A stretch of DNA of 64,000 nt, from positions 1,624-65,623 of the forward strand of contig JAGWLG010000017.1 in the NCBI GenBank assembly GCA_028864975.1, given 5' to 3'. The notes beneath the pieces were generated by a model. It was not told the DNA's origin, searched no databases, and saw only the letters and a list, made by a program, of their open reading frames with translations. The position numbers and the translations under genes are program-made. The DNA is from Thermoplasmata archaeon. Lineage in GTDB: Archaea > Thermoplasmatota > Thermoplasmata > Lutacidiplasmatales > UBA184. Of the stretch, positions 41,464-63,006 are shown one piece after another (within the stretch, counting starts at the first letter, position 1; every line of letters starts with the position of its first letter).

Positions 41464-42036
41464 TCATGGGCACGCCGACGGGGTGAACCCCGTCGGGTAA
41501 AAGATGGTGAGGTAGGTGGGGGAGGCGTCGACCCAGGCGAGCACGACGCTCACATGCATGTCCACGCCCGCCGAGAAGGTGATGCAAGGGGTGGCGTGGT
41601 CCCAGCTCGTGAGCTGGGCCTGCGTGGTCTGGTACCCCGCCGCGGCGAGCGCCTGCAGGGTCGCAGGGGAGTAAAGGTGGACCGGGTTGTCGAAGGATCC
41701 GGAGCGGGAGACCGATCCCCCCGGAAGGTTGGCACTCGCGATCAGGAAGTCGGGCGTGACCAGGAACTGGTAGAGGACCCCGTCTGCGCTCGACGGGAGC
41801 TGGGTCCCGTTCCCCCCCGGGACGGGGGCCGCACCGAAGGTGAACTCCTCGGAGGTCGCGGCGCTCAACCCTTCGTCCCGGTCGACGTGCGTCACGACCG
41901 AGGTCACGACCGCCTCCAGGGCACCTCCCACCCCCGTGTTGCGGTCCATCGCGACGACGGCCGACATCCCGATGATCACGAGCGTGAGGGCGACCATGCT
42001 CGCCACGAGGAGGGAGACCACCCAGTCGAAGATCAT
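41464..42036 (-). CDS. Pilin-like/minor-pilin-like protein (N-terminal hydrophobic helix plus beta-rich body)
   Basis: Start ATG at 42036 overlaps the upstream stop at 42033-42035 (ATGA). N-terminus MIFDWVVSLLVASMVALTLVIIGMSAVVAM. The upstream part of the listed ORF 41464..42555 is Arg/Pro-rich shadow sequence. Confidence 0.6.
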   Translation of the reverse strand: MIFDWVVSLLVASMVALTLVIIGMSAVVAMDRNTGVGGALEAVVTSVVTHVDRDEGLSAATSEEFTFGAAPVPGGNGTQLPSSADGVLYQFLVTPDFLIASANLPGGSVSRSGSFDNPVHLYSPATLQALAAAGYQTTQAQLTSWDHATPCITFSAGVDMHVSVVLAWVDASPTYLTIFYPTGFTPSACP

Positions 42037-42605
42037 CCGCCGTAGGCCCTCCCGACCAGGACGTAGTCGAGGACCCCGCCGCCCGGGAGCGGATAGGCGC
42101 GCTTCTCGAAGAAGAGCGTCATCGAGCTGCCCACCGTCGTGGGGAACGCCGGGCCGAGGGCGGAGGAGAGGTTCGTCATCAGGACGTTCCCGGCTCCTGT
42201 TGACGCGAGGGCCCTGTAGGTCGTGCTCCCGACCACGCCGACGGCCCAGGCCGCCTGATAGTTCGGGGTTCCCCCCGAGGTCAGCAAGGCCGCGCCGACG
42301 GTCACGAGGGCGCCTCCGGGATTGACGTCGAGCAGCAGGGTCGTGTTCAGGTCCCCCTCGAAGGTCTGGACCGCGGTGGAGACGATGTCGTTCACGACGA
42401 CCTCCATCTGGTCGGTCTCCTGGAACGAGCGGAACGCAAGGAACCCTCCGATCACGATGGGAAGGACCATCGCGAGCACCAGCACGATGATCGTGAGCTC
42501 GAGGGGCATCTCGAGAACGCCCCGTCGCGCCCGGGCGAGACGCCGCCCGCGACACCCCGACCGGGGTCGGGGCCGGAGGATGCCAGTTCGTTGGGGGACG
42601 GTCAT
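42033..42605 (-). CDS. Pilin-like protein with a class-III-like N-terminus
   Basis: Basic leader 'RGRRLARARRGVLE' followed by 'MPLELTIIVLVLAMVLPIVIGG'. ATG at 42605 overlaps the upstream stop (ATGA). Confidence 0.6.
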   Translation of the reverse strand: MTVPQRTGILRPRPRSGCRGRRLARARRGVLEMPLELTIIVLVLAMVLPIVIGGFLAFRSFQETDQMEVVVNDIVSTAVQTFEGDLNTTLLLDVNPGGALVTVGAALLTSGGTPNYQAAWAVGVVGSTTYRALASTGAGNVLMTNLSSALGPAFPTTVGSSMTLFFEKRAYPLPGGGVLDYVLVGRAYGG

Positions 42606-43135
42606 GCGAGGTACACCACGAACGACGTCGTGGCCGTCTCCGTGGAGGTGGAACCGACGCTGGCCGGGGGCGTGTAGGTGCCCGTGGCCGTCATATCGAC
42701 GTAGGGGGAGTGCGTGGGCGGCGCGGGGGAGAAGGTCAGCTCGACGCTCCCGTTGCTCCCGGTGGTGCCGATGGCGCCGGTGCCGCCCCCGGCGAGCGTG
42801 ACCGCGACGCCGGGAAGCCCGGCCCCGTGCTCGTCCGAGGCGAGCACCCAGACGTAGATCGGGGTCGAGGACTCGGTCAGGAACCCTCCGCCCCCTCCCC
42901 GGGAGTCCGTGACGCTCACAGCGGAGAGGTGGTGGGCCTGGGCGTAGCCGAGCCAGAAGAAGAGGAGCGTGACCCCGGCTCCGATGATCATGATCGAGAT
43001 GACGAGCTCGAGCCCCATGCCTTCGAGGGTCGCGCGTCGCCCTCGCAGCCTCCTTCGAGACGAGGAGGAGCGGAGCAGCGCAGGGTGGGGGGATGGGACC
43101 ACCACGCTCTTCCTAGGCCACGGTCGAGATTTCAT
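42602..43135 (-). CDS. Pilin-like protein with a class-III-like N-terminus
   Basis: 'RRRLRGRRATLEGMGLELVISIMIIGAGVTLLFFWL' is followed by a Gly/Thr-rich beta body. The start is at the internal Met 43135 of ORF 42602..44650 (alternative Met at 43018), 62 nt after the FlaJ-like stop. Confidence 0.6.
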   Translation of the reverse strand: MKSRPWPRKSVVVPSPHPALLRSSSSRRRLRGRRATLEGMGLELVISIMIIGAGVTLLFFWLGYAQAHHLSAVSVTDSRGGGGGFLTESSTPIYVWVLASDEHGAGLPGVAVTLAGGGTGAIGTTGSNGSVELTFSPAPPTHSPYVDMTATGTYTPPASVGSTSTETATTSFVVYLA

Positions 43136-43197
43136 CCTTCGGACACGTGGGCCGGTGGACGAGGGCGGGGGGGAGAGGACGCCGAGGTCGGGAGGGG

Positions 43198-45357
43198 TCA
43201 CGAGCCCGCCCCTCCTCCGAGGAAGACGATCCCGAGGAAGGCCCCGACCGCGTAGACCAGGACCGCCAGCCAGAGGAACTGCCCAACGAGCGTCCAGAAC
43301 TTGAGCCGGTCCCCGCCGGTCTCGATCCCGATCGAGAAGGCCCCGATGATGAAGACCATCTCCAGGAGGTAGACCCCCATCACGGCAAAGAAGAGGGGCG
43401 GTGGGACCGCCAGCGCGCCGCTGGCGAGGACCCCCGAGAGCAGAAGGTAGAGCGCCCCCGTCATCCCCATGACGATCGGGGCGAAGAAGAAGGCCGAGCC
43501 CTTCATCATCTGGACCGTGCCGCGCAGCGAGGTCCGGATCGAGGCGTCGGTGTTCCGGAGCTCCTTCAGGTGCTGGGCCATCGGGATCACGGTGTCCGTG
43601 ACCGCCTGCGGGCCTTTCGAGGCCGCCTCCAGCAAGGCGCGCAAGGAGACGCGCATCTGGCGAGAGGGATAGCGGGTCAGAAGGCCCGGGCCCCGTGCCG
43701 AACCGAAGAGCGCCTGCTCGGGGGTCCCTCCGCTCACCCGAAGGACGTGGAGCGTCCGGTCGAAGAACTGGGAGGACTCGGTCCCCCGCATCCCCGCGCT
43801 CGTCCGTTCCACCGCGCGCTCGAAACGGAGCCCTTCGCCCATACGGCTCGCGAGCTGGAAGAGCGTGTCGGGGAACTCGTTCTCGAGCTTCTGGAGGGCG
43901 TTGCCCCGCTTGGCGAGGGCCCGGGTCCGCACGTGCACCCCCATCGAGATGCCGGCGCCCAGCCCGAGGAGCACGAAGACCGGCCAGGCCAGGGTCCCGG
44001 GGGGGCCGAAGTACCCCAGGTAGGCGGGGAGCGCGAGGGCTCCCGCCAAGCCCCCCGTGGCGGCCGCCAAGAGCGCGGACTCGCCTCGCGACGGTCGGCG
44101 GACCCCCTGCTCCGGGGGGCGGGGCGGCGTGACGGTCCCCGGACGTTTCGAGAGGATCTGCATGGAATAGAGGAGCGCGACGAAAGGGAAGCCGACGTCC
44201 ATGGCGAGGACGAAACCGACGACCGTCACGATGCTGTTCGTGCTGTTGGCGGAGGTTCCCGCTGATCCTGTCGTGGACGGTGCCCCCGCTGTTCCCGCTC
44301 CTGCGCCAGGGCCGGCCCCCAGGTTCCCCACGTTCGCGAGGTTCGACAGGAAGACCATCGGCAGCATCGCCCCGATGACGAGGGGCAGCAGGACCCCCAG
44401 CGCGAAGAAGACCGTGGTGGGTCCTGAGAGGGAGGAGGCGAACTCCTCGATCTTCCGACGGGTCCCGGAGAGGACGATGTCCTGGGCCTTCTCCAGGTTC
44501 CGCGTCAACCCTTCGTCGGTCTTCTCGTGGGTCGAGAGGCGGAGCGCGTACATGGACCGCATGAAGTCCTCGTTCCAGTTCCCCCACTCGTCGGCGAAGT
44601 GGAGGAAGGACTCCTCGAGCGAGGGGTGCTTGCGGGACATCACGTCCCACTGGACCTTCTTGAGAGCGGCCCCCAAGTTCCCCTCGACGTTCTCGGAGGC
44701 GAACCGGACCGCCCGGGGGAGCGACCGGTTGAGCCTCAGGGACATGGCCATGTAGTGGACGGCTTCTGGGGCCCGTCCCAGGGTCTGCACGCGCAGACGC
44801 CGCGCCAGCATGCCCGGGTAGTTGTACACGAACAGGTAGAGCGAGATGGGGAGCACGAAGGCGAGCAGCGCGACCACGAGGAGGAAAGGCGAGACGACCC
44901 CCTGGCTGAGGACCACGAGGGCCACGAGGGTGCCCACGAGCGCGACAAAGGAGAGCAAGAGCCCTCCCACCGCGGCGTAGTGCACCTCGTCCGGGGTGAC
45001 CTCGAGCCCGGCGAAGTAGATCTCCCGCTTGAAGGCGGTCCGACGGACGGCCTCTTCCAGGCTCTCGCAGCGGCGCTGCAGCGAGGCGAGCTTCCGCTCC
45101 TGGCGGTCCCTCGCGGAGCCGCCGTGAGGGTCGATCGCCTCCTCGCGGGCGAGGATGGAGGTGAGGCGTTGACGGTCCGCGCGGGCGCGCTCCAGCGCCC
45201 TCTGCAGCCGGGCGGTCCTCCGGGCCGGGTCTGCGTAGCCGAGCAGTGCGCGGCCCAGGAGGTGGACGAGCGCGACGTACGCCTTCCCCGGGGCCTCCTC
45301 CTGGACGGTCGGGGGACCCGCGGGCGGGCTTCCCAGCGGGGCTTCCGCGCTATCCAT
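43198..45357 (-). CDS. FlaJ/TadC/PilC-type (T2SSF) polytopic platform protein, fused two-domain archaeal form (720 aa)
   Basis: Two repeats of [TM helices plus a cytoplasmic helical domain]: 'YPGMLARRLRVQTLGRAPEAVHYMAMSLRLNRSLPRAV' and 'LENEFPDTLFQLASRMGEGLRFERAVERT'. An N-terminal coiled-coil-like extension is present. The start at 45357 overlaps the ATPase stop by 8 nt. Confidence 0.8.
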   Translation of the reverse strand: MDSAEAPLGSPPAGPPTVQEEAPGKAYVALVHLLGRALLGYADPARRTARLQRALERARADRQRLTSILAREEAIDPHGGSARDRQERKLASLQRRCESLEEAVRRTAFKREIYFAGLEVTPDEVHYAAVGGLLLSFVALVGTLVALVVLSQGVVSPFLLVVALLAFVLPISLYLFVYNYPGMLARRLRVQTLGRAPEAVHYMAMSLRLNRSLPRAVRFASENVEGNLGAALKKVQWDVMSRKHPSLEESFLHFADEWGNWNEDFMRSMYALRLSTHEKTDEGLTRNLEKAQDIVLSGTRRKIEEFASSLSGPTTVFFALGVLLPLVIGAMLPMVFLSNLANVGNLGAGPGAGAGTAGAPSTTGSAGTSANSTNSIVTVVGFVLAMDVGFPFVALLYSMQILSKRPGTVTPPRPPEQGVRRPSRGESALLAAATGGLAGALALPAYLGYFGPPGTLAWPVFVLLGLGAGISMGVHVRTRALAKRGNALQKLENEFPDTLFQLASRMGEGLRFERAVERTSAGMRGTESSQFFDRTLHVLRVSGGTPEQALFGSARGPGLLTRYPSRQMRVSLRALLEAASKGPQAVTDTVIPMAQHLKELRNTDASIRTSLRGTVQMMKGSAFFFAPIVMGMTGALYLLLSGVLASGALAVPPPLFFAVMGVYLLEMVFIIGAFSIGIETGGDRLKFWTLVGQFLWLAVLVYAVGAFLGIVFLGGGAGS

Positions 45358-47760: not shown

Positions 47761-48849
47761 TCAGCTGCTGCCTCGACCCGGGGTCGAAGCTCCCGGTGGA
47801 GGGGACGGCGAGGAGGGGGAGGACGAGCTCGCCGAAGTCGGGCCTCCGCGTCCGGCAGCTTTGCCGCGGGAGGTGCTCGAACCACCTCGGACCTTGGAGA
47901 CGAGCTCGGAGAGCTCATGGCTCACGAGCTCAAGGTCGCTCACCGTCACGCCGAGGCAACGCACACACTCCTCGTCGGGCCGCCCCGTGCCCAGCACCTG
48001 GACCTTTTCCTTGAGGTCGTCCAGGAATTCCGGCCAACCGATCCGAAGGCTCTCCTCAAGCTCGGGGAAGAACATCCGGGGATTGAAGGCGCACGTCGCA
48101 CAGTCCAGGCGCTTGAGCCGACGCTGCAGGTTGCCGCGGTTGGTCTCCACCGTGGAGATCTTCTCTTCCAGAGGGAGCTCCTGTGGCGTCGACCCTGGGG
48201 ACGGCGCGACGCTACCTGAGGGGGGTGCGCTACTCCGCGACGGGAAGGAGGTCGCACGGGGCGGGGGGGCCGTGGGACCGGCGCGGCCCAAGGGATCGGG
48301 AGCGGTCGTCGCCTCTGAAGAGGGTCGCACCGGTGGGGGCGTGGGGGGAGTGCGGCGCGCGCCCGGGCCCAGGACGCGGCGGAGCTCCTCCTCCTTCTCC
48401 TCCTCGGCCTCCTCGTCGTCGACGGGGGCCCGGGCGGCCTCAAGGTCCGCCTGGCGGTAGAGGTCCTCTAGAAGGTCGTCGAGGTCCGCGCCCGGGATGA
48501 CGATCCCGTCGAGGAGGGGCTGCGGCGGTCGCGTCGCCAGCTGCTGAAGGAGCTTCTGCAGGCCCAGCACCTGCCGCAGCAGCTGGACGGTCTCGCTCGA
48601 GAACTGCCGCATCGTCCGCCCCGACAAGGTCAGGAGGTCGACGTGGTACTCCTCGCCGAGGGCTTGGAGCACGGCCGCGAGGCAGCGGGGGTCGGCGAGC
48701 GCGTCGGGCCCCTCGCAGGCGTCGCAGCGAAGGATCAGATTCGCGGCGCCCCCGGAGGAACGGACCTCGTACTCGAACGGGGGGACCTCGACCTCCTCCG
48801 GCGGCTCCTCCTCCTCGTCGTCCGCGCGACGCCGGTCCGGGGGGGTCAT
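47761..48849 (-). CDS. Acidic cytoplasmic protein with two Cys motifs, immediately upstream of the ATPase (unknown function)
   Basis: 'CDACEGPDALADPRC' near the N-terminus and 'CATCAF...x44...CVRC' near the C-terminus, with Glu/Asp runs and a Pro/Ser-rich centre. It sits in the same position as the uncharacterised 'X' genes of crenarchaeal ups/aap pilus operons. This is positional analogy only. Confidence 0.6.
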   Translation of the reverse strand: MTPPDRRRADDEEEEPPEEVEVPPFEYEVRSSGGAANLILRCDACEGPDALADPRCLAAVLQALGEEYHVDLLTLSGRTMRQFSSETVQLLRQVLGLQKLLQQLATRPPQPLLDGIVIPGADLDDLLEDLYRQADLEAARAPVDDEEAEEEKEEELRRVLGPGARRTPPTPPPVRPSSEATTAPDPLGRAGPTAPPPRATSFPSRSSAPPSGSVAPSPGSTPQELPLEEKISTVETNRGNLQRRLKRLDCATCAFNPRMFFPELEESLRIGWPEFLDDLKEKVQVLGTGRPDEECVRCLGVTVSDLELVSHELSELVSKVRGGSSTSRGKAAGRGGPTSASSSSPSSPSPPPGASTPGRGSS

Positions 48850-48901: not shown

Positions 48902-50791
48902 TCACCCGAACCCCGGTGGCAATCGGGAGGACCGGCGGGTCCGACGGCCCCGGCTCGTGCCTCCTCTCGGGCGTCCGCGCGCCCCCCAACCCCGCTCTTG
49001 GCGCCCTAGACGGGGGCTCTCTTCCACGTCCGGTGGCGGAGGAGGCTCTCGGCCCGAACGGAAGAGCAAGGCACCCGCGACGGCCGCGCCGACGACGAGC
49101 AGCGCGACCCCCATGATCTCGGCCAGGAAGAAGGGGTCGGGAGGAGGGGGGGCGGGGAAGGTGGTCCCGCTCCCGACGGCGACCTCCTGGTAGAGGCCGA
49201 AGAACGACCTCAGGGTGACGGAGACATTGTAGGTCGTGCCGGGGGAGAGTCCCGTGAACGTCGTCGTCGTCAAGGCGGGGTCGGTCAAGGTGACCCAACC
49301 GCCCATCGCGGGACGGGGGTAGAGCTGGACCGCGTAGGAGACGAACCCCTGGACCGAGGAACCCGCGAGGTTCCAGGCCACGGTGAACGAGCTGGGCGTG
49401 ACGCCGTAAACGTAGACCACGAACCCCGGCGGCGAAGGGGCACCCGCGTCCAGGACCACCATGAGCTCGGGGAGCGCCTGGCCCGCGACGTGCTGCATGC
49501 CCACGGCGACGACCGCAAGGTCGTTGGAGGAGGCGGCGGAGAGCGAGGTCGAGGGAAGTTGGACCGTCCGGTACGGCGCGGCGGGGCCGGAGGAGAGGTT
49601 CTCGAACGGCGTGTAGTAGTAGCGCAACGTGCTGCCGATCGTCCCTGCGCCGAGGAGCGCGAAGTACGCCGGGTCGTCGGTCGAGAGCAGGACCTGCGGA
49701 AGGGGGCTCGAGAGGGTGAGCGACCAGACGGGAGTGGTGTAGGCCCCTCCCGGGCTGCCCGACATCGCCAGGGCGTTGAACGCGTAGAGCCCCCTCGTCG
49801 TCTCGACCATGAACTCGGCGCCCGAGGGCCCTGTCGCGATCTGCGAGACGCCGTCGAAGGTCGACCCGGTCGTCGCCCCGTAGCTCTGCCCGGTCACGGC
49901 GGTCTTGCCCACGTTGAAGCCGGTGTTCCCTCCAAGGAACACGTGGGTCCCGTCTGCGGAGAGGGCCGTTGCGGTGGCCGTCGCCCCGGGGTTGGGCCAG
50001 CTGTAGTTGAGAGTCGGGCTGCCGAAGTAGGGGAAGATCGTCGCCTCCGAGGTGCGGCCCTGAAGGTTCACCGTGAGCGCGACCAAGCTCCCATCGGGGG
50101 TCATCGCCACGCCCATCCCCGCCGGGGTCACTCCCCCTAAGGCCGTGTAGTGCCAGGTCATCTTGCCGTGCACGAGGTAGGCGAGGGCGACCCCCGCGAG
50201 CCCGTTCTGCAGGAACGAGCTGAGGACGGCCACGTCGCTGCTCTCGGCGTCGACCGCGACCGCGACGACCTGCTGGTTGGTGATCCCCTTTCCGAAGTAG
50301 GCCAGGTTGTCCGTGAAGTTCCAGGCCTGGAGGAAGCTCCCCGGCTGGGTCAGATTGAGCGCGTAGACCTCCGCCCCCACGGAGGTCAGGACCAGGCTGT
50401 TGGTCCCCGGGGCGGGACCCCGGGCGGAGACGGTCAGCGTCGTCGGTGCCGCGGGCAGGGCGAAGACCCCCAGCGGCTGGTTCGAGGAGATGTTGAAGAG
50501 GTAGACGTGGCCGCTGGTCGAGCCCGCCGCGACGTACCCCGGGTCGCCGGAGACCGCGACCAGGGAGATGGCGGCGGAGTCGGAGGTGTTGAAGCTCCAG
50601 CTTCCCGAGGAGATCGGGGTCAGGCTGGGCTGCAGGATCGCGGGGGCACTGCCCTCAGTGCGCGGAGCGGCGCCCGCCGGGGCCGCTGTCCCGACCGACG
50701 GCAGAGCCAGGAGGAGTCCCAGGAAGAGCGTGAGCACGACCGGAGCTTTCCAGACGACCGTGCTCTTGGGGCCCGGCCCCTTTCCGTTCAT
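48902..50791 (-). CDS. Secreted beta-propeller-like plus fibronectin-III protein with a C-terminal TM anchor
   Basis: The start at Met 50791 overlaps the upstream stop (ATGA). Signal peptide VVLTLFLGLLLALPSVGTA. Recurring blade-like motifs: 'SGDPGYVAAGSTSGHVYLFN', 'MTPDGSLVALTV', 'LSADGTHVFLGGNTG'. FN3: 'TPSSFTVAWN...FTGLSPGTTYNVSVTLRS'. TM FFLAEIMGVALLVVGAAVAGALLF. Confidence 0.7.
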   Translation of the reverse strand: MNGKGPGPKSTVVWKAPVVLTLFLGLLLALPSVGTAAPAGAAPRTEGSAPAILQPSLTPISSGSWSFNTSDSAAISLVAVSGDPGYVAAGSTSGHVYLFNISSNQPLGVFALPAAPTTLTVSARGPAPGTNSLVLTSVGAEVYALNLTQPGSFLQAWNFTDNLAYFGKGITNQQVVAVAVDAESSDVAVLSSFLQNGLAGVALAYLVHGKMTWHYTALGGVTPAGMGVAMTPDGSLVALTVNLQGRTSEATIFPYFGSPTLNYSWPNPGATATATALSADGTHVFLGGNTGFNVGKTAVTGQSYGATTGSTFDGVSQIATGPSGAEFMVETTRGLYAFNALAMSGSPGGAYTTPVWSLTLSSPLPQVLLSTDDPAYFALLGAGTIGSTLRYYYTPFENLSSGPAAPYRTVQLPSTSLSAASSNDLAVVAVGMQHVAGQALPELMVVLDAGAPSPPGFVVYVYGVTPSSFTVAWNLAGSSVQGFVSYAVQLYPRPAMGGWVTLTDPALTTTTFTGLSPGTTYNVSVTLRSFFGLYQEVAVGSGTTFPAPPPPDPFFLAEIMGVALLVVGAAVAGALLFRSGREPPPPPDVEESPRLGRQERGWGARGRPRGGTSRGRRTRRSSRLPPGFG

Positions 50792-51360
50792 GGTCCCCAG
50801 AGCTCCACCCCCACGGTCACCGACGTGTAGCCGCTGTTCAGCGGGGGGAGGGTCGTCCAGGAGGTATAGACCTGATTCTCCGTGCCGGGGGGGGTGGGAC
50901 CCAGGTCCAAATGGGCCGGGTTCCCGCAACCGGTGGCATTGGAGGCAAGGGATGCGAACGTCCATTCCCCGGAGGTGATGTTCACGAGGGCGCTCCCGAT
51001 GTCCCCTCCTACGAACCCGGCCTGAATAAGGCTCGAGGTCCCCACCGTACCGCACCCCAACCCCTGGAGGGCGGTGGCGAGCAGTTGGGAGACGGGCTGG
51101 TCGAAGAGCAGGACCGTCCCCCCGGAGCTCTGGGGAAGCCGGGTCTCGTGAAGGGTGGTCCTCAGCAGGGTCGCGAGGGTGGCTTGGGCATCCCGTTCTC
51201 CGACCACCGAGGCCGCGGACCCCTGGACGGGCGGGACCAGCACGGTGTCGATCACCACCACTGCGAGGGCGAGGATCGGGAGGAAGAGGACCGCATCGAA
51301 GAGCGCGAGCTGACCACGCTGCGTGCGGATCCGTCGTCCTCTCGGCGTATCTGGACCCAT
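50788..51360 (-). CDS. Pilin-like / TadE-like protein with a class-III signal-like N-terminus
   Basis: 'MGPDTPRGRRIRTQRGQ|LALFDAVLFLPILALAVVVI' has a basic leader, an RGQ motif and then a hydrophobic helix, as in archaeal prepilins and TadE-type pseudopilins. Confidence 0.65.
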   Translation of the reverse strand: MGPDTPRGRRIRTQRGQLALFDAVLFLPILALAVVVIDTVLVPPVQGSAASVVGERDAQATLATLLRTTLHETRLPQSSGGTVLLFDQPVSQLLATALQGLGCGTVGTSSLIQAGFVGGDIGSALVNITSGEWTFASLASNATGCGNPAHLDLGPTPPGTENQVYTSWTTLPPLNSGYTSVTVGVELWGP

Positions 51361-51370
51361 GCGACCTCCC

Positions 51371-51856
51371 TCACTCCCAGACGGTGACCTCGATCGTCGC
51401 ATCGTGCATCTCCACGTCGCTCACCCACAGGTCCACGGGGGCCTGGGCGGCGTAGCGGCCCAGGCGCAGCGCGCTGGGGTCGGTCGGCAGCGCGCCGCTC
51501 GCGACGACTCGGTCGAAGTGGGCGGGGTAATCCGACCGGTCGGTGATGTTCACCTCGAACCCGTAGGAGGGATGGTACTCCCAGCTGATGTTCGACTCGG
51601 TGAGGTTGACGACGCGCGAGGCATCGAAGACCGCGTACTGCCCCTGGTAGGTCAGGTTCCGGTAGCCCAGGAGGTCCTCCAGGAGGAGGGAGGCCTGCTC
51701 GGCGAAGGACGAACGGCCCTGACGAGCGGAGAGGGTGGTGAAGGTCGCGTCCAGGGCGGAGAAGAAGAGGATGAAGGAGATGACCACGATCAGGAGGACG
51801 GGGACCTCTTCGAGGAACCCCGCGACCCCGCGACGGGACCGCCGTGAGAGGCGCAT
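51371..51856 (-). CDS. Pilin-like protein, first gene of the operon
   Basis: 'MRLSRRSRRGVAGFLEEVPVLLIVVISFILFF' is followed by a beta-rich body with N-x-S/T sequons. The start is at Met 51856 (internal to ORF 51371..51961), with an AT-rich box about 30 nt upstream. Confidence 0.6.
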   Translation of the reverse strand: MRLSRRSRRGVAGFLEEVPVLLIVVISFILFFSALDATFTTLSARQGRSSFAEQASLLLEDLLGYRNLTYQGQYAVFDASRVVNLTESNISWEYHPSYGFEVNITDRSDYPAHFDRVVASGALPTDPSALRLGRYAAQAPVDLWVSDVEMHDATIEVTVWE

Positions 51857-51882
51857 GGGCGCCTCTTCACGTCCTGGTGAGC

Positions 51883-51890
51883 ATTTAATC
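51883..51890 (-). promoter_or_regulatory. TATA-like box (gattaaatg on the minus strand) about 30 nt upstream of ATG 51856. Candidate promoter of the pilus-like operon
   Basis: It is the only AT island in the divergent 192-nt region between 51856 and 52049. Coordinates are +/-2 nt. Confidence 0.45.
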
Positions 51891-52048
51891 CTCCCCTCGA
51901 GGGGGAACCGACCGAGGACGAGCCTGGGTACGAACGTTTTTGCCCCCGCGAGGCCAGTCACTCTTCACCGACCGGTGGTGGGCCCTCCGTCCCGTCCGAA
52001 CGGAGGTCCGACAGGACCGGGCGAACGCGTGGAAGGTGGAACCGGCCG

Positions 52049-56563: not shown

Positions 56564-59500
56564 TCACGGAGAGGGAGGAGCGAACGCCCCGGCGTCCGAA
56601 GGGGGGGAGGGGTCGGAGCTACCTGCTCCGGGTATCGTCTCGACCGGAGCGGGGCTCTGGGTTTCGCCCTCCGGGGGCGTCTTCAGCGACGAGGTTCCCG
56701 CGCCACCCCGTCCCCCGCCCCCGCCTCCCTTGCGACGGCGTCGAGAACGGCTCTGACCGCGTAGGAAGAGCAGGAGGCCTAGCACGACGACGACCGCGAG
56801 GACCACGCCACCGAAGACGAGGGCCCCGAGCGTCCCCTCGTACCACGGCTTCGCGGGAGGAGGAGCGGGGGTCTGGTTCCCACCGCCACCGCCCCCTCCG
56901 CCGCCACCGCCGCCCCCACCGCTGCAGCTCGCCCCCGACGAGGTCGTGGAGGTCGCGATGACCTGGACGGGGGTGATCCCCGCGGCGGAGCTGGTCGCGT
57001 CGGTGACGCGGAGCGAGACGGAGTAGGTCCCTGTGGCGGTGAACGTGTGGCTCGCCGAAGAGATCGCGATCGCGCTGGAGAAGGTGGTGCCGTCCCCGAA
57101 GTCGACGACGATCGTGTACGGGGACGTCCCTCCCGAGGCCACCCAGGAGGCGGACACCGAGAGCGGGGCGCATCCCGTGGTGGGACTGACCGTCCCCGAG
57201 AGGCTGAGCGGGGCGGCCACCGTCACCGTGCCCGTCAGGTTGAGGACGACGCCGACCGAGTCCGAGACGTTGACCCAGACCCGGAACGTCCCCGCCTGGG
57301 TGATGTGGAAGGTGGCGGAATACCCCGAAGCGGTCCCCCACGGGGTGTGGAAGGTGGGGACCCCGTAGGGCTGGACCCCTCCCGAGATCCCGACGAGCGT
57401 CAGGGTGAGGTTGGCGGGGGCGTCGAGCGTGGCCGAACTGGCGTCGAGGGTCCCAGCGAAGGGGGCCGGGAGCTCGACGACATCGGCCGTCCCGTTCAAC
57501 GAGCCATCTCCCGCCCAGAGGAGGCCGTTCGCGGCGAGCGTGCTCGGGGGCCACTGCCAGAGGACGCCCACGCCGGTCGTGAGGTCCTGCTGCGACACCC
57601 CGACGACCCCTTGCAGGACCTCCGGGCCCGGGACGGTCGGGGACTGTTCGTACCCCTGGGCGCCCAGGAGATAGGTGTTCCCCAGGGTCGAGAGCGAAGT
57701 GACGCTGAGGACGTTGGACGGCAGGGGGAGGGGCACCGTGAGGTCGAAGGCGCCCTGCCCTCCTTGGGTCCAGTTGACGAGGGCCCCCGGTCCTCCGATC
57801 CAGTAGGTGCTCCCGTTCCAGGTCGAGGCGAGAGGGACGAAGAGGTTGGAGACGAAGTCGATGCTCTCGTTCTTGAGCGCCGGGGTCGCGGCGGGGTCGT
57901 AGAAGAAGAAGTCGCCGATCCCCGAGGCCTCCGGCTGCTGCTCGCCTCCGACGAAGGCGGGTCCTCCTCCCTGGGGGGTGATCGTGGTGACCTCGCTGAG
58001 CGAGGTGAGCGCGCCGGAGAGGTTCGCCCAGGTCCCGGCCCCGGGGGCGAAGGAAAAGAGACCCCCTCCCGCGCTGACCTCGGTCGTGAGGCTCGTTACC
58101 TTCTGCAGGAGACCGCCGACGAGCAGTCGGCCGCTGTCCCAGGCCATCGCACCGATGACGAGGTTCGGGTCAAGCCCGGAGGAGATGTCGGTAACCGTCC
58201 CGGTGGTCGTGTTGAACTTGAACACTCGGACCCCATCGGAGAGGTAGACCGCGGCGCCTGAGGCGGCCGCGTAGGAGAGGGGAAGGGTCCCGGAGGGAAG
58301 GCTGCTGGTCAGGTCCGCGGTGGTCAGATTGCCGAGGTCGATCGCGGCGAGACTGCCGGAGGTCCCGTTCGTCCCGGCCGCGTAGAGATGGCCCTCATCC
58401 AGGGCCATCGATGCCGCATCGACGAGGCCGGTACCGAGGGCGCCGCGGATCGAGACGTAGCCTCCCGCCGAGGTCCAGCTCCCGAGGGCGGCGGCGGCCC
58501 CGTTCGTCCAGCCCCCGACCATCAGCGTGGTCCCGTTCCAGTCGATGGTGAGAGGGGCCAGGCCCTTCGGGAAGGGGGAGGGAGGCGACAGGGGCGTGGC
58601 GGCTCCCGTCAGGACGTTCACGGTCGCCGCCCCTGCGGAGGATGCGACCGTGAGACCGTTGGCCACGTTGGGGTCGGGGGCGGCCGCCGTCGGGGTTCCC
58701 GCGGAGCCCGACAGGGGAGCCGTCAGGTTCACGAACGCGCCCCCGGTGAGGTTGACCAGTCCCGTGTAGCGTCCCTGGGAGGTCACGAGGACGTAGCTCC
58801 CTCTCGAACCGACGGGCACGACGGGGGCGGGGAACGTCGCGGGGAGGAGCGTCGTGAGGTTGGTGAACGCCCATGCCCCGCTGGCGAAGGTCAGGAGCCC
58901 GATCGTCCCCAAGGGGCCGCTTCCTGCCACGAAGACGCCCGAGGCGACGGTGAGCGCTCCGAAGAGCGCCTGGAAGGAGGCGGGGACCCCTGCGAACTGG
59001 CCGAAGCCGACGGAATCGTTGTAGACCACGACGATCGGGGCGGGGGTTCCGCTCGAATAGTTCCCTCCCACCAGAGCGACCTGCGAGCCCACAACGCCTC
59101 CGCCGCCGAGCACTTGGAGCCCGAGCGGAGTGAACCCGTAGGCGGGGTGGAAGCTCGCGTTCGAGACGTTCTGCTCCATCAGGGCGGGAGTGCCGCTCGC
59201 TTGACCCCAGAGGAAAACCGTGGGATACTGGCCGGGGACCAGCGCCCCGGTCTCCCGAGCCCCCAGGGCGTTCGCGGGCAGGGTGTTGAGGAAGGTCCCT
59301 GTGGCGTCGCGAACCGCGGGGGAAGCTCCCACCGACAGTGTGCCGAGCTTCGACCCCGTCGCGTTGTCCGTGCCGATCAGGTCGAACTTCCCGCTAGGGA
59401 GCGTGAGGACCTGGTCGACCGAGCTCCAGGACCCTCCGGGGAGCTGGGGTAGGAGCGAGGAGAGGGAGTGCGGGGGCTCCGGGGTCGAGTTCGTGCTCAG

Positions 59501-59677
59501 GAGGATGTCCGAAGGGACCCGTGGCTCCGGGGCCTTGAGGTGTGCAAGGTGAATCCCCGAGGAGGATGGGAGGGCCTTTGCGGAGGCACCGACCGCGGGC
59601 GGCAGCGTGGGCAGCACGACAAGGACGAGGATCGCAAGGACGAGCGCGTGTCCGACGGGGGTCTTGAGCTTCACCAC
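56564..59677 (-). CDS. Large secreted protein (1037 aa) with a C-terminal PKD domain, poly-Gly linker, TM anchor and basic/Pro-rich tail
   Basis: Signal peptide ALVLAILVLVVLPTLPPAVGASA. PKD: 'TTGCAPLSVSASWVASGGTSPYTIVVDFGDGTT...HTFTATGTYSVSLRVTDA'. A G-run is followed by TM LGALVFGGVVLAVVVVLGLLLF and SRSRRRRK. Confidence 0.8.
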   Translation of the reverse strand: MVKLKTPVGHALVLAILVLVVLPTLPPAVGASAKALPSSSGIHLAHLKAPEPRVPSDILLSTNSTPEPPHSLSSLLPQLPGGSWSSVDQVLTLPSGKFDLIGTDNATGSKLGTLSVGASPAVRDATGTFLNTLPANALGARETGALVPGQYPTVFLWGQASGTPALMEQNVSNASFHPAYGFTPLGLQVLGGGGVVGSQVALVGGNYSSGTPAPIVVVYNDSVGFGQFAGVPASFQALFGALTVASGVFVAGSGPLGTIGLLTFASGAWAFTNLTTLLPATFPAPVVPVGSRGSYVLVTSQGRYTGLVNLTGGAFVNLTAPLSGSAGTPTAAAPDPNVANGLTVASSAGAATVNVLTGAATPLSPPSPFPKGLAPLTIDWNGTTLMVGGWTNGAAAALGSWTSAGGYVSIRGALGTGLVDAASMALDEGHLYAAGTNGTSGSLAAIDLGNLTTADLTSSLPSGTLPLSYAAASGAAVYLSDGVRVFKFNTTTGTVTDISSGLDPNLVIGAMAWDSGRLLVGGLLQKVTSLTTEVSAGGGLFSFAPGAGTWANLSGALTSLSEVTTITPQGGGPAFVGGEQQPEASGIGDFFFYDPAATPALKNESIDFVSNLFVPLASTWNGSTYWIGGPGALVNWTQGGQGAFDLTVPLPLPSNVLSVTSLSTLGNTYLLGAQGYEQSPTVPGPEVLQGVVGVSQQDLTTGVGVLWQWPPSTLAANGLLWAGDGSLNGTADVVELPAPFAGTLDASSATLDAPANLTLTLVGISGGVQPYGVPTFHTPWGTASGYSATFHITQAGTFRVWVNVSDSVGVVLNLTGTVTVAAPLSLSGTVSPTTGCAPLSVSASWVASGGTSPYTIVVDFGDGTTFSSAIAISSASHTFTATGTYSVSLRVTDATSSAAGITPVQVIATSTTSSGASCSGGGGGGGGGGGGGGNQTPAPPPAKPWYEGTLGALVFGGVVLAVVVVLGLLLFLRGQSRSRRRRKGGGGGGRGGAGTSSLKTPPEGETQSPAPVETIPGAGSSDPSPPSDAGAFAPPSP

Positions 59678-59736
59678 GGTCTCCGTCCCGGGTCAGCGCG
59701 CGCTGACAGGGGGCGCGGGAGCAAGTCCGCAGGGGT

Positions 59737-62700
59737 TCATGGCGCTTCGCCCGGGGTCGAAGCGGAGCCCGGGGGGTCTCGCGCCCTTCGGACTCCCCTC
59801 ACGCGAGCGAGGAGCAACCCGCCGAGCGCCGCGACCAGGAGCACCGCCACGAGCGGCAGCGCGGCCCCAGCGATCGCCGGGAGCACGAGCAACCCGAGCG
59901 GGGCGAAGAGGAGCACGAACGGACCGCTCGTTGACGAGGCCGGGGAGGAGGAGACCAACTTCCCTCCCTCCTTCATCGCCGAGAGATGGGAGGAAGAGGC
60001 CGCTGCCCACTGCGTCGCGGACGGTAGGGTGGTCGGGCTGGTGGCGACCGTGTAGGTCACCGACGTGATGTGCAGGAAGTCGTAGAGGTAGGCCCCGTAG
60101 TCGCCCCAGGGTTGGGGCGTGGTCGTAACGCCACCCGCACCGTTGCCGAAGGAGTGCTCAGCGACCTGGCCGTTCCCGATGTAGACGGCGGTGTGGTCCC
60201 AGCCGCCTCCGCTCCAATCGTACATGATCAGGTCCCCCGGTTTCATCCAGGAGGGGAGCGAGCCCCCGGTCGCCTCCTGGACCATGTGGCCGGAGATGAG
60301 CCAGTTCCGAAGGCTGACGACCGAGGGGTTCCCGTAGGGGGGAGGCACGGTCGAGGGGACGTTGATCCCACCCGCGTGGAGGGCGAGGGACGCGAAGTGC
60401 GTGCAGTCGTCCCCGATGCTCCCGTAGGCGCTCACGATGTACGGGGTCCCCGTTCCTTGGGAGAAGTGGTGGTAGCAGCACCCCGAGGTCCAGTAGTAGC
60501 CGTCCGAACCCACGACCCCCATGTAACTGCGAGCGTACGAGGCGGCCGCGGCCCCGTTGTAGCCTGAACCACCTCCGCCGCCACCCCCGCCACCGCCTCC
60601 CCCGCCGCCGCCCCCTCCGGTCTGGAGGAAGTGGGCGATCGTCGGCCAAAGGCCGCTCGGCATCGCAGCGGGGCCATCGTCCAGCGCCCAGTAGGCGAGG
60701 AAGTGGACCCCGAGGTTGGTCGTGGATTGGACCTCGGATTGCATGTCCGAGAGCTCGCTCGGAGAACCCGCGCAGTACTCGGGGTCGAGGCCGAGCCCCA
60801 GGTGGGATGTCCCGATCGACGCGAGCGAGGTGTGCGCGGCTCCGTTGAACTGGCTCAACGAGCAGGTGTAGTCCATCAGGACCCAGGTGTCGACCGACGA
60901 CCGGGCCATGCTCGAGAGGGACCAGAAGCCGGGGCTCCACAGGGCGAAGTCCCCGTTCAGCTTCATCCCCTTCCCGTGCAGCGCCGTCGCGAACTGCCCC
61001 ATGAACTGGGCATAGGCCGAGGCGTCCCCGCCGGCGACGGAACCTCCGTTGCAGCTCGAGTCGGGCTCGAAATCCACGTTGTACCCCGCGTACCCGTTCC
61101 CCTTCGCCGTGGTCACGGCCTGGTTGATGAACGGCTGCCAGAGGCTGGAGGCACCCAGGAAGTAGTTCAGGGTGTAGAGGTCGCACGACGTGATCATCGG
61201 GTACATCTTGGAGGAATGCTGCTGGGCCCAGGGCGTCAGGTCGTTCTGGGTACCGGCGTAGCCTCGAGAGCCGAAACTTCCCGAGCTCGAGAGGTAGAAG
61301 GCCTCCTCCGAGATGGACGGGATGTCCTTCGCGACGGTCGCGTACTCGTTGGCGAAGGCGCTTCGGGAGCCTGCCCACGAGCAGAACTGGCATACCCACG
61401 GCATGAACGTCAGGCTCGTGGAGCCGCCGCCTCCGCCCCCGCCTCCTCCGCCGCCCCCTCCTCCGCCACCGCCGGAGCCCGCGCAGGGGGACCCGGAGCT
61501 GTAGGGGATACAGAGGTACCATCCGGCGGTGATGAGGTTCGGGTTGGAGATGCCGTCCACGCTCGCGATCATCGTGTACTTCGCGCTGTTGCCGTAGGCC
61601 TGACCCGCGATCCCCGAGAGCGTGTCGCCCGACCGGATCTGGTACCAGTCACCCGGGGTCGGAGAGCCCGTGAGCGGTGTGCACGGGCTCGGTCCGTAGA
61701 GGTTGCAGTTCCCGCTCCCGCCACCGCCACCGCTCGAGGAACAGGGGGAGCCCCCGCTCGTCGGGATGCAGAGGTAGTAGCCCGAGCTGATGAGGTTCGG
61801 GTTCGGGATACCGTCCACGCTGGCGATCATCGTGTACTTCCCCGAGTTGCCGTAGGCCTGTCCCGCGATCCCGGACAGTGTGTCACCGGAGCGGATCTGA
61901 TACCACTCCCCCGGCGTGGGGGAGCTCGCGAGCGGTGTGCAGCGGTTCGGGCCGTAGAGGTTGCAGCTGCCGCCGCCTCCTCCTCCGCCCCCACCCCCGC
62001 CGCCACCGCCGCTGGAGGAGCAAGCGGTGCCGCTCGAGTGGGGGATACAGAGGTACCATCCGGCGGTGATGACGTTCGGGTTGGAGATGCCGTCGACACT
62101 CGCGATCATGGAGTAGAGGTTACCGTTCCCGTAGGCCTGGCTCGCGATCCCCGAGAGGGTGTCGCCCGATCGGATGCGGTACCAGTTGCCGGGAGAGGGG
62201 CTCGAGGTCAAGGGCTGGCAGGAGGCGGGCCCGTAGAGGTTGCAGCCGCCGCCTCCGCCGCCACCGCCTCCCCCGCCGCCACCCCCGCCGCCCCCGCCAC
62301 CGCTAGAGCAGACGTTGGAGGGGCAGACCGTGCTCCAAGGCAGGCCGGCCTGGTTCTGGCCGGAGCCGGAGCAGCCCTTCCAACCCGTGCCGTAGAAGCC
62401 GTTGGGGGCCCACTTACAGTAGGCGCCGGACAGGTAGCTTCCCCAGAAGTTGTAGCTGTTCGCCCCGTAGTAGGCGTGGGCCCACTGGAACGAGCAGCTG
62501 GGGTTGAAGTAGATCCCACCCCAATTGCCGCTGCTGCCGGACCACGTGGAACAGGTCGAGGCCTGGTAGCCCCCGATGGGGAAGGGGTTGCCCTGGGGCG
62601 GGGACTGTCCACCTGTCCCTTCCTGAAGGATCCCTTCCGCGTAGTAGACCGGCTCGATCGCTGCGGGGTCGAAGCTGCTCTCCTGATAGGCCATCGCGAC

Positions 62701-63006
62701 GAAGGTGATCACGAGCTGGCCGGAGAACCCGGCGTTGAGGGCACAGTCGACGACCGCCTGGAGGGAGAGCGATGTGTGTTGACCGTAGTAGTAGGCGTTC
62801 GGGCAGCCCGACGCCGCGATCGAAGGGCTCACGGGGGCGGAAGACGCCGAGGAGACCTCGGGCGAGAGCGAGGAGGGCGGGCTCGTTCCCTGGGCAGGTA
62901 CTCCTGAAAGCACCATGCCCACGGCGGTCGCCACGGCGGCGACCAGCAGCAGCCAGGGGGTTTCGGAGGGCCGAGAAGCGCGAGAGGGTCCTCGCGAAGA
63001 TTCCAT
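59737..63006 (-). CDS. Membrane-anchored multi-domain peptidoglycan hydrolase-like protein. SLT/lysozyme-like, 3x LysM, GH18/SleL-like and amidase (Amidase_6-like) domains joined by poly-Gly linkers
   Basis: SLT motif 'AMAYQESSFDPAAI...AEGILQ'. Three LysM copies: 'WY(R/Q)IRSGDTLSGIA(S/G)QAYGN...ASVDGI(S/P)NPN(V/L)I(T/S)(A/S)G(W/Y)YLCIP'. GH18-like 'GYAGYNVDFEPD'. Amidase-like 'DDCTHFASLALHAGG' ... 'GDLIMYDWSGGGWDHTAVYIG'. Signal peptide WLLLVAAVATAVGMVLSG. C-terminal TM LPLVAVLLVAALGGLLLA followed by RVRGVRRAR. Confidence 0.85.
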   Translation of the reverse strand: MESSRGPSRASRPSETPWLLLVAAVATAVGMVLSGVPAQGTSPPSSLSPEVSSASSAPVSPSIAASGCPNAYYYGQHTSLSLQAVVDCALNAGFSGQLVITFVAMAYQESSFDPAAIEPVYYAEGILQEGTGGQSPPQGNPFPIGGYQASTCSTWSGSSGNWGGIYFNPSCSFQWAHAYYGANSYNFWGSYLSGAYCKWAPNGFYGTGWKGCSGSGQNQAGLPWSTVCPSNVCSSGGGGGGGGGGGGGGGGGGGCNLYGPASCQPLTSSPSPGNWYRIRSGDTLSGIASQAYGNGNLYSMIASVDGISNPNVITAGWYLCIPHSSGTACSSSGGGGGGGGGGGGGGSCNLYGPNRCTPLASSPTPGEWYQIRSGDTLSGIAGQAYGNSGKYTMIASVDGIPNPNLISSGYYLCIPTSGGSPCSSSGGGGGSGNCNLYGPSPCTPLTGSPTPGDWYQIRSGDTLSGIAGQAYGNSAKYTMIASVDGISNPNLITAGWYLCIPYSSGSPCAGSGGGGGGGGGGGGGGGGGSTSLTFMPWVCQFCSWAGSRSAFANEYATVAKDIPSISEEAFYLSSSGSFGSRGYAGTQNDLTPWAQQHSSKMYPMITSCDLYTLNYFLGASSLWQPFINQAVTTAKGNGYAGYNVDFEPDSSCNGGSVAGGDASAYAQFMGQFATALHGKGMKLNGDFALWSPGFWSLSSMARSSVDTWVLMDYTCSLSQFNGAAHTSLASIGTSHLGLGLDPEYCAGSPSELSDMQSEVQSTTNLGVHFLAYWALDDGPAAMPSGLWPTIAHFLQTGGGGGGGGGGGGGGGGGSGYNGAAAASYARSYMGVVGSDGYYWTSGCCYHHFSQGTGTPYIVSAYGSIGDDCTHFASLALHAGGINVPSTVPPPYGNPSVVSLRNWLISGHMVQEATGGSLPSWMKPGDLIMYDWSGGGWDHTAVYIGNGQVAEHSFGNGAGGVTTTPQPWGDYGAYLYDFLHITSVTYTVATSPTTLPSATQWAAASSSHLSAMKEGGKLVSSSPASSTSGPFVLLFAPLGLLVLPAIAGAALPLVAVLLVAALGGLLLARVRGVRRARDPPGSASTPGEAP

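Follow-up and report, generated by a model that had tools for sequence, protein, structure and literature searches.

A type IV filament (TFF) operon, a giant orphan surface protein and a multi-module hydrolase with its PKD-domain partner are encoded next to one another in a Thermoplasmata archaeon, and this neighbourhood is conserved among related archaea. The three lie in a 64,000-nt stretch of DNA, hereafter the window, from an uncultured, high-GC lineage (assembly GCA_028864975.1, contig JAGWLG010000017.1). The giant and the hydrolase-PKD cassette adjoin each other in about seven species-level lineages that belong to two deep clades, down to 35% identity between the giants. The explanation that we favour, and to which we give about an even chance of being right, is a lineage-specific TFF super-locus in which a giant protein would be displayed on the filament and a tethered hydrolase would act on bacterial walls. 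The original prediction, made from the letters of the window, had proposed that the pilus-like operon and the very large envelope proteins next to it form one functional unit for binding or lysing bacterial cells.

Conserved neighbourhood of the giant gene, the filament operon and the hydrolase cassette

The G+C content of the window is 64-71% (2-kb windows) and is uniform through the locus region; long open reading frames (ORFs) are therefore found in many frames. We separated genes from shadow ORFs by their G+C content at third codon positions (GC3), which is 0.80-0.91 for real genes and 0.59-0.71 for the shadow ORFs that overlap them. The giant gene (GC3 of 0.89) and the PKD and hydrolase genes (0.87 each) score above the ORFs overlapping them, and all three have protein-level homologues in other metagenome-assembled genomes (MAGs). 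The three large genes described beside the pilus-like operon are thus real, including the tandem minus-strand pair formed by the hydrolase and PKD genes. The predicted gaps are right as well, with 59 nt between the genes of this pair and 192 nt between the giant gene and the operon if the ATG at 51856 is taken as the start of the first pilin gene; this start gives a protein of 161 aa, as long as its orthologues. By the criteria of GC3 and homology, a single operon extends on the minus strand from 51856 to 40546. Scans of the window for tRNAs and Rfam families found nothing.

Homologues of the giant were collected from an index of 5.8 billion proteins, from GTDB species genomes and from JGI metagenomes. 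They are rare and occur only in a few Thermoplasmata MAGs. The protein index holds five, the same five being retrieved with a seven-giant profile, and these represent four distinct loci, all beside the operon; the giant's database entry comes from a MAG labelled 'Euryarchaeota archaeon'. GTDB species genomes contributed 13 giant loci, all in 'Thermoplasmata archaeon' MAGs save one bin mislabelled 'bacterium', and JGI metagenomes a single one, which was already known. Sample names suggest acid-mine or peat habitats as the sources. We mapped the window proteins onto all these loci (numbered L001 and so on), clustered all called genes, and grouped the giants by their identity matrix. Type G1 comprises the window's giant with close relatives at 62-75% identity and a distant clade at approximately 35%, type G2 giants are approximately 30% identical to that of the window, and G3 is found in L014 alone.

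In most loci with visible flanks, including those at 28-35% identity, the giant sits beside TFF-operon genes. It is divergent from the first pilin gene in the window, L001, L002, L004, L005, L008, L010, L015 and L017, as is the second giant of L007, and it lies just downstream of the operon's last genes in L011, L012 and L016. L013 shows only a pilin-like gene of family c1, at the contig end, and no operon genes were seen in L019, which has a partial giant match at 24% identity. As for the hydrolase-PKD cassette, it accompanies G1 in the window, L001, L004/L008, L005, L007/L012, L011 and L013/L015, with one intervening gene in L005 and a G2-c1 pair in between in L011. In L010, the PKD gene lies past a 7-kb insertion, and the position of the hydrolase gene falls beyond the fetched DNA.

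The arrangement of these genes varies between the two clades. In L007, L012 and L013, the G1, hydrolase and PKD genes follow each other in this order on one strand, with gaps of 61-133 nt; in clade B the three genes are operon-like and co-directional. In the window's clade the cassette is inverted and nevertheless remains adjacent to G1. Where they could be compared, the outer flanks differ, both beyond the hydrolase gene (window, L001, L008) and beyond the zinc-ribbon gene at the end of the operon (window, L011/L012, L016). Since the flanks, the orientation of the cassette and the domain order of the hydrolase all differ and yet the adjacency stays, we regard the linkage as retained rather than as residual synteny. 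The comparison of related genomes suggested with the original prediction has thus shown the proximity of G1, operon and cassette to be conserved, with the restriction that loci with only G2 or G3 giants do not have the cassette.

Several observations concern the surroundings of these loci. In distant clades, a c1 paralogue directly precedes the giant. Proteins of this family (approximately 190 aa, weak Big_1 match, motif R[G/A]|[AVT]LEG[LM][PG]L) are encoded directly upstream of giants in L007, L011, L012, L013, L015, L017 and L002, and in L007, L011 and L012 a c1 gene also precedes that of a Big_1 protein of approximately 970 aa (family c8). This looks like a repeated cassette made of a small pilin and a large protein. 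Giants of the window's clade have no upstream c1 gene.

In the MAG 'clean282' (L001:21447-24491, on a contig shared with L016), a second, paralogous pilin/fn3 set comes right after the hydrolase gene (46% identity for the pilin, 24-26% for the fn3 protein), and a G2-type giant is found past the opposite end of the operon, so that TFF-type gene sets lie on both sides of the cassette in this MAG. The window has neither addition. A second pilin set after its hydrolase gene was looked for and rejected, since an acidic repeat ORF and the beginning of a gene for a probable methyltransferase occupy positions 63007-64000. The former, a putative coding ORF only (63152-63676, plus strand), lies just upstream of the hydrolase promoter region and would encode an extremely acidic N-E-T-G-D repeat peptide (GENGTGDHDNETGDPANETGENNDTGDYENETGDDNQTGE...). 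In the peat-type JGI locus (L002/L003:14706-18387), genes for an N6/N4 DNA methyltransferase and a DUF87 (HerA/TrwB-like) ATPase replace the cassette downstream of the giant and may represent a defence or mobile-element insertion.

The giant protein

The giant had been described as a 1490-aa protein with a pilin-like N-terminus and no recognisable domain, transcribed divergently from the operon, and this description was borne out. Sequence and profile searches gave no Pfam, NCBIfam or PDB match. The only hydrophobic helix of the protein lies near its N-terminus, and a C-terminal anchor is absent. The N-terminal sequence RxRS[G/A]-R[V/I]PY, which leads into this helix, is kept among homologues with overall identities of 28-35%. 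The conserved form RSRS[G/A]-R[V/I]PY resembles a class III signal-peptide (SPIII) site and departs from the usual consensus.

The multi-module hydrolase and its PKD partner

The hydrolase starts with a hydrophobic signal or anchor, ends with a transmembrane (TM) anchor and contains 29 Cys residues. From N- to C-terminus, it comprises a lysozyme-like candidate domain (aa 60-235), LysM repeats (aa 276-501), a GH18-like domain (aa 530-796) and an Amidase_6/NlpC-P60 module (aa 816-955). Three linkers have 17-19 consecutive Gly residues, and two shorter runs of 14 and 5 separate the LysM repeats. The poly-Gly linkers stem from short GGN-type tandem repeats (60578-60612, 61423-61474 and 62246-62303), and such tracts are likely slippage or assembly hotspots. 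At the DNA level, LysM repeats 2 and 3 are a tandem repeat of 258 nt with 82% matches (within 61505-61973); the window and L008 have three LysM copies, whereas L001 and L005 have two. The hydrolase-PKD pair converges on the 3' end of the giant gene, 42 nt away, and a TATA-like element, TTCAAATA, is present approximately 30 nt upstream of the hydrolase ATG.

Two of the four modules have Pfam matches above the gathering threshold (GA), namely the three LysM repeats (E=2e-17, 63.3 bits versus a GA of 20.9) and the amidase module (Amidase_6, 28.7 bits versus 23.2; NlpC_P60, 26 bits versus 23). The latter has Cys868 in the motif DCTHF, His938 and His951. The middle domain has no direct Pfam match at E<=10, and an exhaustive search returned 230 homologues, of which 25 of the 68 that were aligned match Glyco_hydro_18 (PF00704; best E-value, 2.8e-8). 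In the DxE motif of these 68 sequences the Asp is invariant and the Glu is present in at least 90%, the window's version being NVD645FE647. By transitive homology, the middle domain is thus a predicted GH18-like barrel.

The N-terminal domain is the most delicate to assign. Its scores are 16.3 bits versus 28.2 for Phage_lysozyme2 (E=0.011), 16.3 versus 27 for SLT_3 (E=0.014) and 11.4 versus a GA of 21.3 for SLT. Among 13 sequences scanned, up to 4 have weak matches, all of them to families of the lysozyme clan, and the residues YQES...AEGILQ are invariant (YQE109S...GILQ in the window). A profile search of this domain against the PDB found nothing. Because the scores are below threshold and the fold is not confirmed by PDB profiles, AlphaFold2 (AF2) or Foldseek, we treat the domain as a lysozyme-like candidate and not as a member of the SLT family. 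Of the four-module murein hydrolase that had been proposed, the LysM repeats (three copies) and the Amidase_6/NlpC-P60 module hold, the SLT assignment stands at sub-threshold level only, and the fourth module, which had not been named, is predicted to be GH18-like. Altogether, the protein is predicted to be a multi-catalytic hydrolase of N-acetylglucosamine (GlcNAc) polymers or murein.

A recent import of the gene from bacteria or phages was considered and is unsupported, given the uniform G+C content and the identity of the closest relatives of the lysozyme-like and GH18-like domains, which are Thermoplasmata or 'Euryarchaeota' surface proteins. In a phage collection, the lysozyme-like domain has no match, and the amidase module matches Listeria phage records at 31% identity over half its length. 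Exact look-ups found no database record for the window's hydrolase or for the protein designated P0012.

The hydrolase has been rebuilt between the clades. In the window's clade the order is lysozyme-like domain, two or three LysM repeats, GH18-like domain and amidase; in clade B, a new N-terminal region of 600 aa is followed by the GH18-like, lysozyme-like and amidase domains, and there is no LysM. The YQES and amidase Cys motifs are kept in all full-length orthologues, and AEGILQ in all of them except that of L011, which has no match; the L005 gene is cut at a contig end, so that its lysozyme-like domain is unreadable. The window's clade and L011 retain the catalytic Glu of the GH18-like domain. 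Judging from these motifs, the invariant core of the hydrolase is the lysozyme-like candidate together with the papain-fold amidase.

The PKD protein begins with a signal-like N-terminus, which is followed by an uncharacterised region of approximately 800 residues, a single PKD domain and a run of Gly; it ends in a TM anchor and a basic tail. A profile search against the PDB matched PKD domains only. Its gene adjoins the hydrolase gene in both clades wherever the flank falls within the fetched DNA, with identities of 28-68%, and the C-terminal TM segment and basic tail are kept throughout the loci.

Paralogues with the lysozyme-like domain occur elsewhere; their contigs also carry genes for Topo VI or an RFC-type clamp-loader subunit. 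One of them, P0013 (lysozyme-like and PKD domains; L023:9142-12853), is encoded directly after a 192-aa gene with a weak Pilin_N match, far from any TFF ATPase or platform gene. Two others, P0006 and P0007 (lysozyme-like, Amidase_6 and PKD domains; L006:5685-12457 and L024:6729-13384), each follow a gene for an AAA_16/TPR protein of approximately 1050 aa with a MalT/LuxR-like architecture, which may be their dedicated regulator.

The type IV filament operon

The minus-strand operon encodes a CpaF/FlaI-type ATPase, a fused platform protein, five pilin-like proteins and three accessory proteins (Table 1). From 51856 onwards, two pilin-like genes are followed by those of the fn3 protein, the acidic 362-aa protein, the ATPase, the platform, three more pilin-like proteins and the membrane/zinc-ribbon protein. 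The pilus-like operon of the original prediction is therefore confirmed in its T2SSE ATPase, its T2SSF platform and its pilin-like N-termini (an R-G/A site and then a hydrophobic stretch), and its extent is revised: it reaches left past 41464 to the gene at 40546-41388, and it includes a pilin-like gene at approximately 42602-43100 that had not been listed. By its gene content, the locus belongs with the type IV filament loci of archaea.

Table 1. Genes and intergenic region of the filament, giant and hydrolase locus in the window.
Feature	Position	Strand	Remarks
Membrane/zinc-ribbon protein, 280 aa	40546..41388	-	Operon's last gene; approximately 3 TM segments, Pro-rich linker, C-terminal zinc ribbon (Zn_Ribbon_1 match)
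Pilin-like protein, family c11, without leader	41464..42036	-	Begins MIFDWVVSLLV...; start at 42036; abuts the stop codon of the preceding gene
Pilin-like protein, 190 aa	42033..42605	-	Class-III-like site RRG|VLEMPLELTIIV; GC3 0.89; motif kept in L002, L016 and L017
Pilin-like protein, family c1, Ig-like body	42602..43100	-	...RATLEG MGLELVISIMIIG; weak Big_1 match, E=0.0033
Fused FlaJ/TadC/PilC-type platform protein, polytopic, 747 aa	43198..45441	-	T2SSF, 28.2 bits versus GA 25.2; many TM-like segments
TFF secretion ATPase, 796 aa	45350..47740	-	N-terminal zinc ribbon, Pro-rich region of approximately 200 aa, CpaF/FlaI-type core
Acidic cytoplasmic accessory protein, 362 aa, 7 Cys	47761..48849	-	Beside the ATPase gene in all related operons
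Accessory surface protein, 632 aa (from Met 50800)	48902..50800	-	fn3, E=1.3e-8; signal-like N-terminus, beta-rich body, C-terminal TM anchor
Pilin-like protein	50788..51360	-	Site QRG|QLALFDAVLFLPIL; start approximate
Pilin-like protein, 161 aa, operon's first gene	51371..51856	-	Site RRG|VAGFLEEVPVLL
Divergent intergenic region, 192 nt	51857..52048	.	AT-rich TATA-like ATTAAATG (minus strand, 51883-51890), approximately 30 nt upstream of the pilin ATG; putative promoter
Giant orphan surface protein, type G1, 1490 aa	52049..56521	+	Divergent from the first pilin gene, 192 nt apart
PKD surface protein, 1037 aa	56564..59677	-	PKD_4 and PKD matches
Multi-module hydrolase, 1089 aa	59737..63006	-	Lysozyme-like candidate, 3 LysM, GH18-like, Amidase_6/NlpC-P60

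The ATPase is identified by T2SSE (67.3 bits versus a GA of 24.9), TadA family (132 bits), FlaI (115 bits) and zinc-ribbon matches. Its nearest solved structures are CpaF (E=4.5e-31), GspE of A. fulgidus and FlaI, and it has approximately 340 extra N-terminal residues, among them the zinc ribbon. The platform protein is 44-85% identical to those of related loci; its ORF overlaps the end of the ATPase gene and its start codon is therefore uncertain. The acidic protein has no Pfam or NCBIfam match. The fn3 protein has TM-like segments at residues 13-43 and 555-583 and orthologues of 631-648 aa. The membrane/zinc-ribbon gene occupies the same place at the end of the operon in L011, L012 and L016.

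None of the pilin-like proteins matches a Pfam pilin family. In four of them R-[G/A] precedes a hydrophobic helix, and the fifth opens directly with the helix. The class III-type sites, recognised at the motif level and kept in orthologues, are RRG|VAGFLEE, QRG|QLALFD, RRG|VLEMPLEL and RA|TLEGMGLEL. The first pilin is the best conserved of the system, at 40-81% identity. Orthologues of the second, at 50788..51360, are 59-71% identical in close relatives and 28% in L002/L003, those that are annotated having 189-203 aa. The c11 proteins begin with MIFDW, MNLDW or MIYDW and are kept in L002, L011, L012, L014, L016 and L017. The start of the c1 gene is approximate and lies somewhat upstream of Met 43018.

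Other genes of the window

Giant surface proteins account for a large share of the coding sequence of the window. Two of them, of 1721 aa (94-5259, plus strand) and 2875 aa (5380-14007, plus strand), carry eight to nine Flg_new_2 domains (divergent InlB B-repeat) each, and a 1034-aa protein has five PKD domains (17790-20894). Two paralogous membrane proteins (20891-22261, plus strand, and 27877-29439, minus strand) have partial NQR2/RnfD/RnfE matches, one of them together with a double zinc ribbon; their context is not that of an Rnf or Nqr operon.

Discussion

In the mechanism that we propose, the TFF machine would assemble a filament or a short pseudopilus, in which the giant would be inserted or displayed by means of its pilin-like helix, acting as an adhesin. 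The Sec machinery would export the hydrolase and the PKD protein. In the window's clade, their C-terminal anchors would hold both at the archaeal membrane, with the hydrolase modules borne on flexible poly-Gly linkers. Filament and adhesin would keep a bacterium, or debris of bacterial walls, against the surface of the archaeon, where the lysozyme-like and GH18-like modules would cut glycan strands and the NlpC/P60-type module peptide stems while the LysM repeats grip the substrate. The archaeon would thereby lyse bacteria on contact or scavenge polymers of their walls, fungal chitin walls being a possible alternative target. It is tempting to go further and to picture an outright contact attack, with the giant on its filament catching bacterial prey and the tethered hydrolase and PKD protein opening the wall. 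We consider this specific scenario unlikely; if it were true, the locus would be an archaeal equivalent of the Tad-dependent predation seen in bacteria, and the first archaeal weapon against bacteria to be coupled to a filament.

A number of observations weigh against a super-locus of this kind. Its support is gene neighbourhood, and all loci come from one narrow MAG lineage, with approximately seven species in two clades. The cassette is missing near TFF loci whose only giant is of type G2 or G3 (L002/L003, L014 and the L016 side). The hydrolase and PKD genes of the window converge on the giant gene and form a transcription unit of their own, with a TATA-like element, which excludes co-transcription of the giant and the cassette there. 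The single functional unit of the original prediction finds partial support in the conserved neighbourhood of giant, operon and cassette, and neither the loci without hydrolase nor the separate transcription unit of the window fit it well. No match to a prepilin peptidase family (PibD/FlaK/EppA) was found among the ORFs scanned across the 64-kb window; in archaea, the gene for this enzyme is often located away from the pilus locus. AF2 gave no usable model for residues 1-1200 of the giant (5-sequence alignment; predicted local distance difference test score, pLDDT, of 28.4). For the lysozyme-like domain, whose scores are sub-threshold, AF2 reached a pLDDT of 46.8 with 13 sequences, and the single Foldseek match in the PDB was meaningless.

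The remodelling of the hydrolase is a further difficulty. The catalytic Glu of the GH18-like domain is lost in L007/L012 (DLA, aa ~726) and L013/L015 (DFT, aa ~730), clade B has neither LysM nor a clear C-terminal anchor, and only the window's clade has such an anchor. These losses restrict the picture of a tethered protein with four modules acting on the wall to the window's clade. As the proteins of L007/L012 and L013/L015 have no LysM, their GH18-like barrel may have become a binding module. Similarly, the C-terminal TM segment and basic tail kept in all PKD proteins suggest that the PKD partner could serve as a membrane tether where the hydrolase has none. Lastly, simpler paralogues of the lysozyme-like domain, with PKD and with or without amidase, are found in unrelated neighbourhoods, and the combination of LysM and GH18 would fit chitin equally well.

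Other explanations were considered. The main rival is that the genes form a surface-protein island without mechanistic coupling, in which a stand-alone antibacterial or scavenging peptidoglycan hydrolase (PGH) would have come to lie near the TFF genes through a variable envelope region or shared regulation. This is possible, if on the unlikely side. The window is rich in giant surface proteins, such as the two Flg_new_2 proteins and the protein with five PKD domains, related loci hold further large proteins (families c8, c15 and c19), and the paralogues in unrelated contexts and the cassette's own transcription unit in the window would find a simple place in such an island. Moreover, the archaeal PGHs that have been characterised act alone and are secreted (PMC12352652). 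A mere island would, however, hardly predict that G1, hydrolase and PKD genes stay adjacent in approximately seven lineages, to 35% identity, despite an inversion, domain reshuffling and differing flanks where these were compared, nor that they are arranged like an operon with the giant in clade B.

Alternatively, the target may be something other than bacterial murein. LysM and GH18 form the standard pair for chitin binding and chitin cleavage, and the LysM region finds its best sequence match in the PDB in Ecp6, a fungal chitin-binding effector (E=2e-6). LysM domains can bind chitin and some archaea digest it (PMC12352652), so that chitin or fungal walls might be attacked for nutrition in place of murein. 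We give this idea a slim chance only, because the parts that are lost in evolution are precisely the LysM repeats and the GH18 catalytic Glu, whereas the NlpC/P60-type amidase and the lysozyme-like domain, which chitin would not require, are invariant. The modules could also be directed at the archaeon's own surface, trimming its N-glycans or glycocalyx, or at scavenged glycoproteins, to let the filament and giant pass or to recycle GlcNAc. Such a role would parallel that of the dedicated wall hydrolases of bacterial trans-envelope machines. Endo-beta-N-acetylglucosaminidases are found in both GH18 and GH85, and 2 of the 68 aligned homologues of the middle domain match GH85 weakly. In addition, the hydrolase is devoid of N-glycosylation sequons (N-x-S/T; 0 versus approximately 7 expected), like its orthologues at L001:17945-21082 and L008:18798-22232 (0 each), and its neighbours are rich in them: the PKD protein has 22 versus 6.9 expected, and all four Asn residues of the first pilin are in sequons (4 versus 0.6 expected). 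This pattern would fit an enzyme that must avoid being its own substrate; clade-B hydrolases have 7-10 sequons versus 11-13 expected. Self-directed remodelling nevertheless appears very unlikely to us, as LysM, NlpC/P60-Amidase_6 and lysozyme-like modules are the classic combination of murein hydrolases and as the GH18-like Glu is dispensable in part of clade B, unlike the invariant lysozyme-like and amidase motifs.

How does the locus compare with known systems? Archaeal TFF loci regularly include large proteins of an adhesin-like or S-layer-like type (Makarova et al. 2016, PMC4858521), and the TFF 'system 2' is characterised by an ATPase with an extended N-terminus, a single platform gene, a mixture of pilins and large proteins resembling adhesins (Sivabalasarma and Albers 2026, bioRxiv 10.64898/2026.04.22.720090). 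The window's locus similarly has an extended ATPase, a single fused platform, pilins with and without SPIII, accessory membrane and cytoplasmic proteins, and large secreted or C-terminally anchored proteins with a putative adhesin role; this likeness to system 2 is one of gene content. Unlike the archaeal TFF systems compared, the locus has no MinD-like ATPase, and its giant is an orphan without Ig, PilY or DUF2341 similarity. Neither PMC4858521 nor bioRxiv 10.64898/2026.04.22.720090 mentions a hydrolase or lysozyme component.

As for the enzyme, the premise that an archaeon does not need murein-directed modules for its own wall agrees with the work of Strock et al. (2025, PMC12352652), who found PGH homologues in approximately 5% of archaeal genomes, prominently in Thermoplasmatota, and reported that two haloarchaeal PGHs, Woldo and Danwoldo of Halogranum salarium, kill bacteria. 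The only delivery machine considered for archaeal PGHs in that study is a contractile injection system, and its main text is silent on pili (PMC12352652). Like Halogranum, the window's archaeon presumably lacks a murein wall, and it encodes a protein that combines peptidoglycan-binding and catalytic domains with an export signal. Woldo and Danwoldo are small proteins that Tat exports and that are released freely; they carry PG_binding_1 domains and a single catalytic domain (M23 or glucosaminidase). The window's hydrolase, by contrast, has up to three catalytic modules, LysM repeats, poly-Gly linkers, a membrane anchor and a TFF/giant neighbourhood.

Parallels also exist outside the archaea. 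The CwlT-type hydrolases of conjugative elements and phage tail lysins combine a muramidase or lytic transglycosylase with NlpC/P60. The core of the window's hydrolase likewise comprises a lysozyme-like domain and then a papain-fold module, and it is encoded beside genes for a membrane-spanning nanomachine; its weak Pfam matches, Phage_lysozyme2 and SLT_3, are also reminiscent of phage tail lysins. However, CwlT and phage lysins breach a wall that their own machine must cross, unlike the window's hydrolase, which has in addition the GH18-like and LysM parts and no significant phage similarity beyond the half-length amidase match. In the SleL/YaaH spore-cortex hydrolases of Bacillus, LysM is joined to a GH18-type barrel whose substrate is murein glycan and not chitin. 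The window's hydrolase shares the LysM and GH18-like pairing, its GH18 link being through homologues only, and it differs in architecture and organism. Finally, Kil of Myxococcus xanthus is a Tad-like apparatus for contact-dependent prey killing, in a diderm bacterium and with a secretin. The resemblance is an analogy only: both systems have a machine with a CpaF/TadA-type ATPase, CpaF being the nearest solved relative of the window's ATPase, but the homology seen is limited to ATPase and platform, and killing is hypothetical for the window's system.

Each part of the locus is thus of a known kind. In the literature searched, there was no report of a conserved linkage between TFF genes, a giant and a hydrolase, nor of the orphan giant family; the conserved neighbourhood of TFF, giant and multi-enzyme hydrolase and the giant family itself appear to be undescribed. 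Experimental cases of archaea fighting or feeding on bacteria are recent and sparse, and the examples considered here concern freely secreted enzymes, namely haloarchaeal peptidoglycan hydrolases and a phospholipase. With a filament machine, an orphan giant family and a wall enzyme co-inherited in approximately seven species, the locus is a concrete candidate for a contact-dependent route. Even without coupling to the filament, its hydrolase, with three candidate catalytic modules versus one, stands apart from the characterised PGHs of Halogranum. If the coupling is true, it would give a new role to archaeal TFF machines and a function to an orphan family of 1500-aa proteins, and it would implicate acidophilic or peat-dwelling Thermoplasmata in the turnover of bacterial wall carbon or in the killing of their neighbours.

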